Of a stretch of DNA of 7,977 nt, positions 2,146 to 6,018 are shown piece after piece. This DNA comes from a virus. Taxonomy: Duplodnaviria; Heunggongvirae; Uroviricota; Caudoviricetes. Within the stretch, counting starts at the first letter, position 1. Each line of letters opens with the position of its first letter. Under the pieces are notes generated by a model. That model had not been told where the DNA came from. It saw only the letters and a program-made list of their open reading frames with translations, and made no database searches. The translations under genes and the position numbers were made by a program. Location: IMG/VR virus record IMGVR_UViG_2545824714_000009; one strand, written 5' to 3'.

Positions 2146-2400
2146 CCAGGACTACACACAGCATAAAGTTGTGGTGCCGGGTGCCTCCCGGTGCCTGGCG
2201 AAGGTTGCACACCAGACGGGTGGGTATCCACAGAAGGTCGACTGTCAGCCTCAACCTTAACCCGCGTGCGCTGAGCCGCATTCACCACAACGCTAAGGAT
2301 TCTCTTTGGTTGAAAATACTTAGCTGTTATGTGCCTGTCTTTTCACCACTTCAGGCTCGGTGGTATCCTTTTAAGCCCGTATACATAAAAGGAAAATCAA

Positions 2401-2646
2401 ATGACTTTTGATGAAAAAGAACTTGATAATGCAATTAATAAAATCATCGTAACGTCGCTCTTTTCCTGTCTCAGCGACACTCAGCAGAAACAGTTCTACG
2501 AATCGGCTTTCAACATGATCGAGCGTTGTTGTTTCTGCGATGCCGACGAGTTACCTGAAAAAATCAGGAAACAGTTGGCTGATGCTCTTCGAGTGCGACT
2601 TTCTGACCAATTTTCTGAAATGTGCTCTCCGAATTTGGACAAATAG
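2401..2646 (+). CDS. Hypothetical small protein (81 aa), oriented against the leftward early operon; possible moron
   Basis: ATG at 2401 preceded by AGGA with an 8-nt spacer; protein-like composition (MTFDEKELDNAINKII...). No family recognised and no clear sigma-70 promoter found upstream. Confidence 0.5.
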   Translation: MTFDEKELDNAINKIIVTSLFSCLSDTQQKQFYESAFNMIERCCFCDADELPEKIRKQLADALRVRLSDQFSEMCSPNLDK

Positions 2647-2839
2647 AAAAAGGCCATTTCCATTCAGGGTCTGATGGAAATACTTCAGCCTGTTCCAAAG
2701 CACGGCGTAAAGAGAACACAACTCCAGCCATAATCTGATGTTTCCCATTGGTCCAGCTATCGCCGCTCTGATCTACAGGGGCGGCTATGTCGTATGACCA
2801 AACGACTTCACAGTTATTGTTTAAAATCTGGACTTTCAT
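2564..2839 (-). CDS. Hypothetical small acidic protein (91 aa), first gene downstream of the putative PL/OL region
   Basis: Minus-strand ORF. The ATG at 2839 is preceded by AGGTG with a 6-nt spacer (an alternative ATG at 2860 has a weaker RBS). The N-terminal part looks protein-like (MKVQILNNNCEVVWSYDIAAPVDQSGDSW...). The 3' 83 nt overlap the convergent plus-strand ORF, so the true C-terminus is uncertain. Not Arg-rich, so not N-like. Confidence 0.45.
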   Translation of the reverse strand: MKVQILNNNCEVVWSYDIAAPVDQSGDSWTNGKHQIMAGVVFSLRRALEQAEVFPSDPEWKWPFSICPNSESTFQKIGQKVALEEHQPTVS

Positions 2840-3046
2840 TTCATACACCTGCTTTAACATGAGTGCCTAGTGGCACAACATGACTCAACGAATCATCCTG
2901 GACTTCATATGCCCCAGGCGGCTACTTCGTGGGCGTCCTGCCTGTTCGTTTTTGACATTTACTGACTGCTTACGACACATGCACCGTGTTGCAACCAGAT
3001 TTTGTTGTAATCCTGTAGTTGGTCTGGAACAAAAGATAAAATTAAA

Positions 3047-3083
3047 TTGCGAGACATGCAAGTGATATTTGCGAGATATGCAA
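3047..3083. promoter_or_regulatory. Putative OL operator pair (two 15-bp near-palindromic sites) with the likely PL promoter
   Basis: TTGCGAGACATGCAA (3047-3061) and TTGCGAGATATGCAA (3069-3083), 22 bp centre to centre, share the TTGCG-N5-(A/T)GCAA architecture with the site at 3851-3865 between cI and cro. They lie just beyond the cI terminator, where OL/PL sits in lambdoid phages. Confidence 0.5.
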
Positions 3084-3096
3084 ATTTATAGGTAAT

Positions 3097-3117
3097 AAAA
3101 AGCCACCTTTCGGTGGC
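3097..3117 (-). terminator. Intrinsic terminator downstream of the repressor gene
   Basis: Minus-strand RNA GCCACC-GAAA-GGUGGC (6-bp GC stem, GNRA tetraloop; 3117-3102) followed by UUUUUAUU (3101-3094), 21 nt after the cI stop. Confidence 0.65.
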
Positions 3118-3137
3118 CGATGGATGGGATATTGAGG

Positions 3138-3830
3138 TTAATTATGTCTCTTAAGGGTTTGCGACTGACTGATTAAGACCTTTCCAAAGACCATGAATCG
3201 GTGTTCGTTTTCGCTAGTAATTCCCCATTCACGGTAAATCTGGTTATCAGAAATCACCAGCAGTTTGTCAGGAATCATTTGAAGTCTTTTAACGTATATT
3301 TTGTCATCAAAACCAAAGACATATATACCATCACCATCAAACTGATTGATGCTGACATCAACGAAGATGAGATCTCCGGGCTCAATGGTTGGACACATAC
3401 TGTCCCCACGAACGTTGATAACTTTGATGTGATTGGCTGGTCGTCCGCCGAACATTGATACAGCATTATCAGTTCTGTATTCGATGGCATGAATCACATC
3501 AATGACATCACCGCCCTGGATAAGGCCATTTCCCGCACTGGCACTGATATCCAGCATTTCAATACGGAACACATCCTTCACCTGCGCAACATCCTCATTA
3601 TTACTGTTTTTATATACAGTATTACTTTTGTGGGCAGAGGTAAAGAGATCAGCAATATCAACACCTAAGCTCTTGGCAATATTACTCAGTGTTTGTTCGG
3701 TAAATTGTTTTTGCTTACCCGTTTCTAAGCGCGAGATGTTCGCCGCATCTACTCCTATCGCTTCAGCGAGATCGGCGATTTTCATGTTCTTCGCTTGGCG
3801 AAGTTGTCTGACTCGGTTTCCTATGTTCAT
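3138..3830 (-). CDS. cI: CI-like prophage repressor: N-terminal XRE-type HTH plus C-terminal S24 (LexA-like) autopeptidase domain
   Basis: 230-aa ORF. N-terminus RVRQLRQAKNMKIADLAEAIGVDAANISRLETGKQ is an XRE-type HTH; there is an Ala-Gly candidate cleavage site (SASAGNG), a catalytic Ser in GDSM and a Lys in YVKRL. It is divergent from a Cro-like gene. No SD upstream; the -10/-35 spacing suggests a leaderless mRNA. Confidence 0.9.
   Translation of the reverse strand: MNIGNRVRQLRQAKNMKIADLAEAIGVDAANISRLETGKQKQFTEQTLSNIAKSLGVDIADLFTSAHKSNTVYKNSNNEDVAQVKDVFRIEMLDISASAGNGLIQGGDVIDVIHAIEYRTDNAVSMFGGRPANHIKVINVRGDSMCPTIEPGDLIFVDVSINQFDGDGIYVFGFDDKIYVKRLQMIPDKLLVISDNQIYREWGITSENEHRFMVFGKVLISQSQTLKRHN
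3602..3621. promoter_or_regulatory. Near-consensus LexA (SOS) box located inside the cI coding sequence
   Basis: TACTGTTTTTATATACAGTA matches the E. coli LexA box consensus TACTGTATATATATACAGTA at 18 of 20 positions, with intact CTGT-N8-ACAG. It is the only CTGT-N8-ACAG in the window and encodes TVYKNS in the CI inter-domain linker. Confidence 0.45.
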
Positions 3831-3927
3831 GCGTTTATTACATTTCTTTATTGCGTGATAAGCAAATCAACTTGCGCAAAATAATTGCGTGAAATAACAT
3901 GCATAACGCGCAATATTTGGAGGGCGT
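3831..3927. promoter_or_regulatory. Divergent immunity control region (OR-like operators, PRM-like and PR-like promoters)
   Basis: Operator-like site TTGCGTGATAAGCAA (3851-3865), palindrome TTGCGCAA (3872-3879) and further TTGCG/CGCAA half-sites (3885-3889, 3909-3913). Leftward promoter candidate: -35 TTGCTT, 17-bp spacer, -10 TGTAAT at -12..-7 relative to the cI ATG. Rightward candidate: -35 TTGCGC (3872-3877), 17 bp, -10 TAACAT (3895-3900), then GGAGG SD 5 nt before the cro ATG. Confidence 0.6.
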
Positions 3928-4188
3928 ATGCAATCACCATTACGAAATGTGCGTAAGGCGCATGGTTTCACTTTGCAGCATGTTGCTGCGGGTGTTCAAG
4001 TCAATCCAGCGACGTTGAGTCGTATTGAGAGGCTGGAGCAGATTCCATCTATCGAGCTTGCAGAACGTTTAGCCAATTTTTTTAAGGGTGAAGTCAGCGA
4101 AATGCAGATTCTTTATCCGGCACGTTTTCAATCTAGCCAAAACCAGAATGGGTTTAAACCACAGGAACAGGAGGTGAACCGTGGGTAA
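3928..4188 (+). CDS. cro: Cro-like HTH regulator (86 aa)
   Basis: ATG at 3928 with GGAGG 5 nt upstream. N-terminal HTH (GFTLQHVAAGVQVNPATLSRIE); divergent from the CI-like gene across an operator-bearing region. Confidence 0.8.
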   Translation: MQSPLRNVRKAHGFTLQHVAAGVQVNPATLSRIERLEQIPSIELAERLANFFKGEVSEMQILYPARFQSSQNQNGFKPQEQEVNRG

Positions 4189-4732
4189 GCATCACTGGAA
4201 AGTAGAAAAACAGCCTGAGTGGTACGTGAAAGCTGTCAGAAAAACTATCGCAGCGTTGCCGGGGGGGTACGCTGAAGCTGCTGACTGGCTGGATGTAACA
4301 GAGAACGCATTATTTAACCGCCTTCGTGCCGATGGCGATCAGATTTTCCCGCTGGGATGGGCAATGATTTTGCAACGTGCTGGTGGAACTCACTTCATTG
4401 CTGACGCTGTGGCGCAGTCTGCAAATGGCGTCTTTGTGTCTCTTCCTGATGTCGAGGATGTGGACAACGCCGATATCAACCAACGCCTGCTGGAGGTCAT
4501 TGAACAGATCGGCAGTTATTCAAAACAGATTCGTTCAGCAATCGAAGACGGTGTAGTGGAACCGCATGAGAAAACTGCAATTAACGACGAGCTATATCTC
4601 TCAATTTCGAAGCTGCAGGAGCATGCAGCACTGGTCTACAAAATCTTTTGCATTTCAGAAAGTAATGACGCCCGCGAGTGTGCAGCTCCGGGCGCCGTGG
4701 CGTGTCGTGACTGTGGAGAAACTAACGCATGA
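4181..4732 (+). CDS. CII-position early protein (183 aa); possibly YdaT/CII-like regulator, with a C-terminal Cys cluster
   Basis: GTG start at 4181 preceded by AGGAGGT with a 5-nt spacer, overlapping the cro stop by 8 nt. Sits directly after cro. C-terminus contains CxxxxxxxCxxC ([12 protein letters not shown]). Family assignment is from recollection and context only. Confidence 0.7.
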
Positions 4733-5067: not shown

Positions 5068-5076
5068 AGGTCGGTC

Positions 5077-6018
5077 ATGAGCACTAAATTAACCGGCTAT
5101 GTATGGGATGGTTGCGCAGCGTCAGGCATGAAATTATCCAGCGTGGCAATTATGGCCCGCCTGGCTGATTTCAGTAATGACGAAGGTGTGTGCTGGCCAT
5201 CAATTGAAACCATTGCCCGTCAGATTGGCGCGGGGATGAGTACCGTCAGAACGGCTATCGCACGGCTGGAAGCAGAAGGCTGGTTAACGCGTAAGGCGCG
5301 TCGCCAGGGTAACCGCAATGCGTCGAATGTTTATCAGCTTAACGTTGCGAAGCTTCAGGCAGCGGCATTTTCTCAACTGTCAGATTCTGACCCGTCAAAA
5401 TCTGACGCATCAAAATCTGACCCGTCAAAATTTGATGCGTCGAAATCTGGCAAAAAAGCGGGTTTTCACCCGTCAGAATCTGGCGGGGATCCGTCAGTAA
5501 AATCAAAACATGATCCGTCAGATAAAAAAACTTCTCGTCCGGACGCTTCGCAACCGGACACGCAGACGGCTGAACAGGAGTTTTTAACTCGCCATCCTGA
5601 TGCGGTTGTATTCAGCCCTAAAAAGCGCCAGTGGGGAACGCAGGATGATTTGACCTGCGCACAGTGGCTCTGGAAAAAAATCATCGCCCTGTACGAGCAG
5701 GCCGCCGAATGTGACGGCGAGGTGGTTCGTCCCAAAGAACCGAACTGGACAGCCTGGGCAAACGAAATTCGCCTGATGTGTGTGCAGGATGGTCGTACTC
5801 ATAAACAAATCTGCGAGATGTACAGCCGCGTCAGTCGCGATCCGTTCTGGTGCCGTAACGTGCTCAGCCCGTCGAAGCTGCGGGAAAAATGGGATGAGCT
5901 TTCCCTGCGCTTATCGCCGTCCGTCAGCACGTACACCGAAAAACGCGAAGACCCGTACTTCAAAGCCAGTTACGACAACGTGGACTACAGCCAGATCCCG
6001 GCAGGATTCAGGGGGTGA
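5077..6018 (+). CDS. Phage replication initiator: N-terminal winged-HTH domain, internal repeat region, DnaT-like C-terminal domain
   Basis: 313-aa ORF with GAGG 7 nt upstream. N-terminus (…WPSIETIARQIGAGMSTVRTAIARLEAEGWL) is HTH-like. The C-terminus ends …DYSQIPAGFRG, resembling the C-terminal end of E. coli DnaT as I recall it (…SQIPPGFRG). An iteron array lies inside the gene, as in lambda O. Confidence 0.85.
   Translation: MSTKLTGYVWDGCAASGMKLSSVAIMARLADFSNDEGVCWPSIETIARQIGAGMSTVRTAIARLEAEGWLTRKARRQGNRNASNVYQLNVAKLQAAAFSQLSDSDPSKSDASKSDPSKFDASKSGKKAGFHPSESGGDPSVKSKHDPSDKKTSRPDASQPDTQTAEQEFLTRHPDAVVFSPKKRQWGTQDDLTCAQWLWKKIIALYEQAAECDGEVVRPKEPNWTAWANEIRLMCVQDGRTHKQICEMYSRVSRDPFWCRNVLSPSKLREKWDELSLRLSPSVSTYTEKREDPYFKASYDNVDYSQIPAGFRG
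5386..5530. repeat. Iteron array plus A-rich tract inside the replication gene: candidate origin of replication
   Basis: 15-bp periodic units TCTGACCCGTCAAAA / TCTGACGCATCAAAA / TCTGACCCGTCAAAA / TTTGATGCGTCGAAA (5386-5445), with further CCGTCAG cores at 5470, 5491 and 5515, followed by GATAAAAAAAC (5521-5531). The coding-level equivalent is a DPSKS/DASKS pentapeptide repeat. Confidence 0.65.

Follow-up and report, generated by a model that had tools for sequence, protein, structure and literature searches.

Bacteria and phages seldom have long, conserved antisense overlaps in which both genes encode proteins, and such overlaps tend to be met with doubt. The locus analyzed here raises the question of whether two small convergent open reading frames (ORFs) that share their 3' ends are both genes, and what such a pair might do for a prophage. 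It lies in a stretch of 7,977 nucleotides of viral DNA (Caudoviricetes; IMG/VR record IMGVR_UViG_2545824714_000009), the whole of which is referred to as the window. Gene B (2401..2646, plus strand) encodes 81 aa from an ATG start, with the Shine-Dalgarno (SD) sequence AAGGA located at 2389-2393, 7 nt ahead of the ATG, and points against the early-left operon of the promoter PL. Gene A (2564..2839, minus strand), which corresponds to orf33 of Shigella phage SfV, encodes 91 aa and is the first gene downstream of PL. The convergent pair overlaps at the 3' ends by 83 nt (2564..2646). An earlier note on this DNA had described an 81-aa plus-strand and a 91-aa minus-strand ORF with good ribosome binding sites and this overlap, all of which was confirmed from the sequence. 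Within the overlap a conserved dual-coding core is located at approximately 2588-2622, where frame arithmetic places position 3 of the B codons on position 2 of the A codons. What the earlier note missed is that A and B are a strictly co-inherited two-gene module with a dual-coding core, not chance neighbors. The comparative data presented below show selection in both frames and an overlap of long standing, and the evidence is unusually clean.

The start of gene A requires a choice between two positions. From the first ATG, the minus-strand ORF extends over 2564-2860 and encodes 98 aa, as annotated for SfV orf33. From the ATG at 2839-2837 it encodes 91 aa, with AGGTG (the complement of 2846-2850) located 6 nt upstream. 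The latter appears to be the better start, because the homology of many relatives ends exactly at 2841 and only the 91-aa ORF exists in them, because MKVQ begins every divergent homolog without an N-terminal extension, and because it was also the choice of the Prokaryotic Genome Annotation Pipeline (PGAP).

Conservation and selection of both frames

The pair was followed across 11 divergent lineages from E. coli, Klebsiella, Salmonella, Enterobacter, Serratia, and metagenomes. Initial protein searches yielded almost solely near-identical E. coli sequences and frameshifted variants, together with one true divergent homolog of A (P0040, 64% identity) on contig L006. This contig also contains an uncalled, intact, and convergent homolog of B with 76 aa and 62% identity, and its module DNA is 70% identical to that of the window. 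A search with the A profile through 1.84 billion representatives provided nine further divergent homologs, giving an A set of P0040 and P0051-P0059. In every contig carrying an A homolog, an intact B homolog of 76-85 aa was located on the opposite strand by tblastn or by listing of the ORFs. In the reverse test, a B-profile search recovered stand-alone proteins of 75-84 aa in Klebsiella, Salmonella, Enterobacter, Serratia, and E. coli, and the Serratia locus found from its B homolog was observed to contain a convergent A homolog with an overlap of ~110 nt. Intact and convergent copies of A and B therefore co-occur in 11/11 lineages with no exception, B being intact and preceded by an AAGGA-type SD in each, at identities to the window that fall to ~25% for B and ~41% for A. 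Since the overlap was found in all 11 lineages, with the 3' end of A covering 74-173 nt of B outside the window, the suggestion of the earlier note that one stop codon could be mis-assigned was rejected. The core ends in the same register, with a core overlap of 35 nt in L006, L094, and L095 and of ~26-53 nt, as judged from tblastn ends, in L096, L098, L099, and L101; in the six lineages that allowed a clean reading it amounts to ~35 nt. From these data, A and B appear to constitute one conserved accessory module of lambdoid prophages in Enterobacterales.

Regarding distribution, the module is present in 425 of 5,426 complete E. coli genomes (~8%) at a coverage of at least 80%, mostly with at least 98% identity, and its carriers include O157:H7 strains and enterotoxigenic E. 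coli (ETEC). In GenBank, the phages with the module are limited to SfV, vB_EcoM-720R4, and SKA5, all of which can be cultivated, and tblastn of the divergent B proteins against GenBank phages gave no additional phages. Nearly all matches in scans of viral and metagenome sequences were near-identical E. coli copies, and two scans of the GTDB species representatives found no relative. The 121 full-length copies that were fetched represent 41 haplotypes, of which 38 retain an intact B and 37 an intact A. The Serratia copy (L112, 3501-4188; Serratia marcescens CP092184.1) is located between Mu-like baseplate genes and a 363-aa ORF, in which an RHS-core-like PxxxxDPxGH motif was recognized by eye with no Pfam match, and its A is embedded within a longer called ORF. 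The position of this copy, away from any repressor, implies that A and B move as a unit.

Substitution patterns were then considered for each frame separately. Outside the overlap, the substitutions relative to L006 at codon positions 1, 2, and 3 amount to 14, 4, and 30 for B and to 17, 7, and 37 for A, and such a third-position bias in both genes is the mark of coding sequence. The proportions of nonsynonymous and synonymous differences (pN and pS) were obtained from Nei-Gojobori counts over eight lineages. For A codons 1-62, where only A is encoded, frame A displayed a pS of 0.77, a pN of 0.32, and a pN/pS of 0.41 without any stop, while each of the other five frames contained 17-43 stops. 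For B codons 1-20, which are occupied by B only in all lineages, the corresponding values in frame B were 0.81, 0.25, and 0.31, and for B codons 21-54 they were 0.76, 0.39, and 0.52, with no stops in either region and a pN/pS of 0.44 for codons 1-54 as a whole. The antisense frame of the A tail behaves differently over B codons 21-54, with a pS of 0.40, a pN of 0.47, a pN/pS of 1.19, and 12 stops. In view of this ratio and these stops, the long C-terminal tails of the A homologs of 122-126 aa appear to be unselected read-through; CHQHRNNSTDQSC, a motif that looks conserved in these tails, mirrors the B motif DRCCYCDADD. Within the core common to both genes (B codons 55-74, approximately A residues 65-84), pS was 0.45 and pN 0.37 in both frames, giving a pN/pS of 0.82 with no stops for frame B and of 0.81 with one stop for frame A. 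The lower pS in the core, seen in both frames, is as expected if each frame constrains the silent sites of the other. In pairwise comparisons, dN/dS ranged from 0.08 to 0.29 for B among the less saturated pairs, and from 0.06 to 0.39 for A in five of six pairs, with 0.73 for the pair L103-L105. Polymorphism within lineages was uninformative, the ratio of non-synonymous to synonymous changes being 16:7 for A and 10:8 for B.

These results bear directly on whether one ORF might be nothing but a non-coding antisense artefact of the other. Such a view would be in keeping with annotation, since PGAP calls only A in most genomes and the SfV record contains only orf33, gene B being omitted by routine annotation in general. 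It is nevertheless hardly credible, given that each non-overlapping part is biased toward third-position changes in the only stop-free frame, and that B is intact with its SD in all the lineages. Conservation of one ORF with stops accumulating in the other, an outcome raised by the earlier note, is not what was found; both are under purifying selection. The open frames and the coding-type substitution patterns in distant relatives indicate that both ORFs represent more than chance, and with high confidence they can be regarded as genes with correct stop codons and with a dual-coding overlap that is old and maintained.

Location, candidate promoters, and the cassette hot-spot

The location of the pair was analyzed in relation to the immunity region. 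A 15-mer, TTGCGAGAYATGCAA, occurs in exact copies at 3047 and 3069 and in a weaker copy at 2970, all to the left of a cI-like repressor gene, and in variants at 3851 and 3899 to its right, amounting to 5 matches against 0.55 expected. The copies flanking the repressor gene are taken as the operators OL (left; the two exact copies span 3047..3083) and OR (right). A leftward promoter, the candidate PL, is predicted at ~3059-3031 on the minus strand from a -35 hexamer TTGCAT and a -10 hexamer TATCTT, both read by eye. On account of these 15-mers and hexamers, gene A is placed as the first gene of the early-left operon, adjoining PL and OL. The proximity of the pair to PL/OL, as the earlier note had put it, is thus borne out by the operators at 3047 and 3069.

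Upstream of B, a conserved element with a CCAC/GTGG inverted repeat is located at 2332..2369 on the plus strand (TGCCTGTCTTTTCACCAC-loop-GTGGTATCCT) and may act as the B promoter. Over 2332-2370 (TGCCTGTCTTTTCACCAC-loop-GTGGTATCCTT), all 39 nt are identical in the window and L006, whereas the genes are only 70% identical. The element is recognizable in 8 of the 11 lineages, usually 31 nt ahead of the B ATG, and also stands ahead of plus-strand genes in the SfII and YeP1/L099b cassettes described below, and hence in three cassette types. All its copies share GTGGTAnCnT and an unvarying CCAC/GTGG stem. As a promoter, it would comprise an extended -10 sequence, TGgTATCCT, at 2361-2369 and a weak -35 sequence, TTCACC, at 2342-2347, from which a transcript would start near 2376 with a leader of ~25 nt. 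Two other roles were considered and rejected. The hairpin at 2346-2363 is not supported as an intrinsic terminator, as the minus strand has no U-run and the plus strand only a weak one that is not conserved, and a function as an RNA hairpin is not indicated, the stem being invariant without covariation. At the other end of B, just past its stop and inside gene A, an 8-bp AT-rich inverted repeat (ATTTCCAT...ATGGAAAT) is present at 2652-2681. A minus-strand T-run follows it, yet the repeat is not conserved in L006, and it was rejected as a functional terminator.

Ten of the 11 lineages provided enough flanking sequence for comparison. In seven of them A lies on the same strand after a cI-like repressor, as the first or second gene, and in lineages with such a repressor-linked A gene B is always oriented toward the repressor, while at least four types of repressor/cro accompany A. 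The module is accessory: SfV, 720R4, and SKA5 possess it, and SfII, SfIV/Kati, mEp460, and ST64B display the same flanks with other content or nothing between them, which is the presence/absence pattern of a moron. Like morons, B occupies a variable cassette site and is oriented against the early-left operon, an orientation that the earlier note had read as a moron signature.

The corresponding hot-spot is the region 2370-2885 of the window, between the element at 2332-2369 and the leader of PL, with equivalents in L003, L052, L090, L093, L099, L107, and L108. It accommodates at least four non-homologous cassettes of small genes, mostly convergent pairs. The cassette of SfII encodes convergent proteins of 63 and 68 aa with a 39-nt overlap, that of Kati 144 and 68-73 aa with a 29-nt overlap, and that of YeP1, which is also the second cassette of L099, 77 and 86 aa with a 4-nt overlap. 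Two cassettes in tandem are found in L052, L041, L054, and L099. When the A and B profiles were compared by hhalign with the proteins of SfII, Kati, YeP1, AH07, ZF40, and SPN3UB and with the 105-aa ORF of L006, no homology was found; only the B-like ORFs of L103 and L105 matched, with a probability of 96-97%. In SfII, a 14-codon remnant of the start of gene A (MKVQILNNNCEVVW, followed by A and a stop) survives the replacement as a stub in front of the new gene. In some relatives, the first PL gene encodes a 73-aa protein that consists of little beyond a ClpX-type C4 zinc finger (PF06689, E 1.4e-10), at 4448-4669 (minus strand) in L018 and at 5076-5297 (minus strand) in L052; in L018, a 306-aa ORF with a BRCT domain (PF00533, E 1.4e-6) is located nearby on the opposite strand.

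The right boundary of the hot-spot is a structured leader element at 2889..2948, between PL and A, which is not specific to A/B. It is present in 56 phage records from nine genera, including Escherichia, Salmonella, Shigella, Yersinia, Klebsiella, Citrobacter, Pantoea, and Pectobacterium. Two helices with 13 predicted pairs are formed, of which seven display compensatory changes, and both strands fold equally well; Rfam contains no family for it. A terminator-like hairpin on the plus strand is located at 2929-2945, inside the leader element, which may have another role. In position and two-stem shape the element resembles the put antiterminator RNA of HK022, while BLAST gave no match between it and the fetched HK022 fragment, in which the presence of HK022 PL was not confirmed. 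A feature annotated as a "terminator" in the SfV record (L002, 3132-3164) coincides with no hairpin in the sequence and was disregarded.

The two proteins and the proposed switch

Both proteins belong to uncharacterized groups. The hidden Markov model (HMM) of phrog_3311 matches B with an E-value of 1.2e-55 over residues 1-81 of 81, and that of phrog_3195 matches A with 6.4e-70 over residues 1-98 of 98; each is labelled as of unknown function, and the divergent homologs match the same two groups. Both proteins are acidic and soluble (pI 4.6 for B and 5.0 for A) and have no membrane segments, the maximum 19-residue Kyte-Doolittle score being 0.8-0.9. In A, the residues V3, W14, G26, W29, L44, A47, Q50, P55, W60, and P63 are invariant, and in three lineages its homolog forms the C-terminal domain of a protein of 170-198 aa. 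AlphaFold2 models, both run before the deeper alignments existed, predicted four strands and two helices for A and three helices for B with low confidence (predicted local distance difference test, pLDDT, 48 and 58, respectively), and Foldseek returned no match to them below E = 2.6. Scans of A, B, and the neighboring cassette proteins with Pfam, NCBIfam, and PADLOC gave nothing meaningful: the Pfam matches at E <= 0.1 were at chance level, with no membership in the SieB family, and in PADLOC A had no match and B only a chance-level one to SspC (E 0.035, 10 bits). The PDB yielded no relative in profile searches with A and B. The statement of the earlier note that neither protein resembles a recognized family accordingly holds for the searches run, none of which returned a named family. 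Three known classes were examined for the pair and set aside. A type II toxin-antitoxin (TA) system does not fit convergent genes without toxin or antitoxin matches in Pfam, NCBIfam, or PADLOC; a type I system does not fit either, as there is no hydrophobic membrane toxin and both strands encode selected proteins; and a lambda N-type antiterminator is not supported by the N-terminus of A, MKVQILNNNCEVVWSYDIAA, which contains one K and no R and has no Pfam match.

The explanation that we tentatively prefer, with a probability of about 45%, is that B is an effector of the lysogen and A its early-lytic partner or antagonist, the two being mutually exclusive through convergent transcription. B would be transcribed from its own promoter, the element at 2332-2369, and so would be made in the repressed prophage in the manner of a moron, and A would be made only once the repression of PL by cI is lifted. 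The two transcription units would converge, with mRNAs complementary over at least 74 nt. For this reason, firing of PL should silence B, through polymerase collision and antisense pairing, and in the lysogen transcription of B would dampen leaky expression of A. The two small acidic proteins would most likely form a functional pair, in which B may be an effector of the lysogenic phase that, for instance, mediates exclusion or modulates the host, and A an early-lytic factor that neutralizes or replaces B, so that the lytic growth of the prophage itself could escape. A broader generalization is possible, though doubtful: A/B would be the best-conserved representative of a "strand-switch" cassette design in SfV/ST64B-like prophages, in which a lysogeny gene and a lytic antagonist are joined by a dual-coding overlap, firing of PL silences the first and produces the second, and a single hot-spot, between a shared promoter element and a shared structured leader RNA, serves for the exchange of non-homologous cassettes built in this way.

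Several observations weigh against the lysogen effector and lytic antagonist. The expression of both genes is predicted from sequence, and no homology or reliable structure in Pfam, NCBIfam, PADLOC, PDB, or Foldseek ties A or B to families of exclusion, defence, toxin, or antitoxin proteins. The putative B promoter matches the consensus weakly (-10 TATCCT, -35 with 4/6 positions), a simple promoter scan gave no call, and the inverted repeat in the element could be something other than a part of a promoter. Moreover, L103 and L105 lack the element ahead of B, and none was detected in L112; it is therefore not essential to the module. The module in Serratia adjoins neither a repressor nor PL. 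Within the E. coli lineage, A is disrupted in 4 of the 41 haplotypes and B in 3, some of which may be assembly errors. Finally, the overlap alone enforces co-inheritance, and co-occurrence is no proof of functional coupling.

This last point is the basis of the view that A and B are unrelated accessory genes packed tail-to-tail, which co-travel through an inseparable overlap with no regulatory role. The overlap would enforce their linkage unaided; its length varies between 74 and 173 nt, owing to the unselected read-through tails of A, and the other cassettes make do with the shorter overlaps of 4 nt (YeP1), 29 nt (Kati), and 39 nt (SfII). We consider this somewhat unlikely. Both genes remain intact and selected in 11 lineages down to ~25% identity, none of which has one of the two pseudogenized, and the conserved cores overlap in a fixed register. 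In addition, placing position 3 of B on position 2 of A is the most constraining phase, which would be costly unless tolerated for a reason, and transcripts complementary over at least 74 nt must interact if both are made. The same geometry and co-occurrence data would also fit a reversed polarity, in which A is a host-harmful early protein, such as a kil-like or takeover function, and B or its antisense RNA is the antidote, which would protect the lysogen from leaky PL and blunt superinfecting relatives as a safeguard resembling a toxin and its antidote. The first position after PL is a frequent place of host-directed early functions, and a B-sense transcript would be complementary to the mRNA of A at its 3' end, or along its whole length if transcription reads on. 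Type I TA systems and lambda oop/cII provide known cases of control by 3'-overlapping convergent antisense transcripts. This polarity appears distinctly unlikely, since A has neither a membrane segment nor similarity to known toxins or kil proteins, and since classical TA pairs are co-transcribed and A/B are not.

It is far less probable that A or B is a regulator of the lysis-lysogeny decision, acting on the repressor, Cro, CII, or elongation in the manner of N, CIII, or an antirepressor. A directly follows PL, the place of N in lambda, and no recognizable N is found in these phages. However, many close relatives, among them SfII, SfIV, mEp460, and ST64B, possess the same immunity region without the module, which is hence dispensable; the N-terminus of A is not arginine-rich, with one K/R in the first 20 residues; and at least four repressor types accompany the module, whose Serratia copy is located away from any repressor. 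For the lysogen effector with its lytic antagonist, related systems provide a measure of comparison.

Morons, according to a definition reportedly given by Juhala et al. in 2000, are units of promoter, gene, and terminator that are expressed from the repressed prophage. Their transcriptomic signature is described in PMC7067206. B resembles them in being small, in running against the lytic operon, in being part of a presence/absence cassette, and in having a promoter-like element ahead of it, its expression in the lysogen and its terminator being putative. The difference is that A/B comprises two convergent genes with a shared coding core instead of a single gene. In lambda cII/oop and in type I TA systems such as txpA/RatA, convergent transcripts are complementary at their 3' ends, and mutual down-regulation through duplex formation and RNase III is expected. 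The transcripts of A and B would likewise be convergent and 3'-complementary, but those systems have a non-coding RNA as one partner and, in the TA case, a toxin in the form of a small hydrophobic peptide; A and B are both soluble, selected proteins. The sieB/esc/sas exclusion system of P22 is said to have been described by Ranade and Poteete in 1993. It consists of a factor for exclusion, an inhibitor of that factor, and an antisense RNA (PMC12197685, PMC7067206), and as an early-left accessory locus with a lysogen factor, a counter-factor, and an antisense RNA it follows the logic proposed for A/B. It has no sequence similarity to A/B, with no Pfam match. Esc is made in frame from within sieB, while A and B occupy opposite strands as distinct genes; exclusion by B is putative. 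In Pseudomonas phage Fc02, a lytic-operon gene overlaps, in antisense orientation, an exclusion gene on the lysogen strand (PMC9936078). This pair, olg1/olg2 versus gene 10, shares with A/B the location of the lysogen-strand gene near the repressor and its antisense overlap by a lytic early-operon gene, and accessory (exclusion) activity is associated with both sides, which for A/B is putative. Fc02 is a Mu-like phage with unrelated proteins, and conservation of its overlap across distant lineages is not its point. In Salmonella prophages, genes antisense to lytic genes and equipped with their own promoter are typical accessory loci (PMC7067206). None of the precedents in Salmonella prophages, Fc02, P22, or oop/cII is homologous to A/B. 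The pair is thus uncharacterized and conserved, a dual-coding convergent pair at a cassette hot-spot of SfV-like prophages, and is rated as akin to two known kinds, morons and antisense-coupled phage genes. Apart from the mis-assigned stop, the interpretation offered in the earlier note is supported in part: its moron-like reading is plausible and antisense coupling is likely from the arrangement of the genes.

If the pair consists of an exclusion factor and an escape factor, or of a toxin and an antidote, it would represent a compact way of tying an accessory function to the lysis-lysogeny state. If true, it would also offer an experimental entry to the whole hot-spot of similar two-gene cassettes.

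Setting of the window

The window is an SfV/CPS-53-like lambdoid prophage. Over 2250-3140 it matches E. coli FORC_031 and a group of ETEC chromosomes with 100% identity, and SfV is 99.4% identical across 79% of this query. The GC content of the A/B module is 0.43, compared with 0.49 for the window. On one side of the pair, the annotated neighbors on the minus strand are a yfdR remnant, yfdQ (DUF2303), and yfdP, separated from A/B by a GC-rich non-coding stretch. On the other side are the cI-like S24/HTH repressor gene (3138-3830, minus strand), a cro-like gene (3928-4188), and a cII-like gene (4181-4732), followed by replication genes.

Three further features of the window were observed. At 100-610, the C-terminal end of an ORF for an IS21-family IstB (100-285), a label assigned by eye from the translation only, abuts a truncated yfdR (329-610) of 93 aa, compared with 178 aa in FORC_031; in this prophage copy an insertion sequence appears to break up the left arm, which is uninterrupted in FORC_031 and SfV. 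The minus strand at 2098-2313 gave a match below threshold to the prophage small RNA family STnc100 (RF02076), with 39.5 bits against a gathering score of 47 and an E-value of 5e-6. This region is overlain by a PGAP "frameshifted hypothetical protein" pseudogene and crossed by long spurious ORFs; STnc100 has been reported to be related to PasD (bioRxiv 10.64898/2026.05.13.724894). Repeats of the form TCTGAC...GTCAAAA follow one another at 5378-5452 in the O-like replication gene (5077-6018); this run, which encodes the repetitive DPSKSDASKS stretch and caused a spurious match to mir-5880, probably contains the iterons of the origin.

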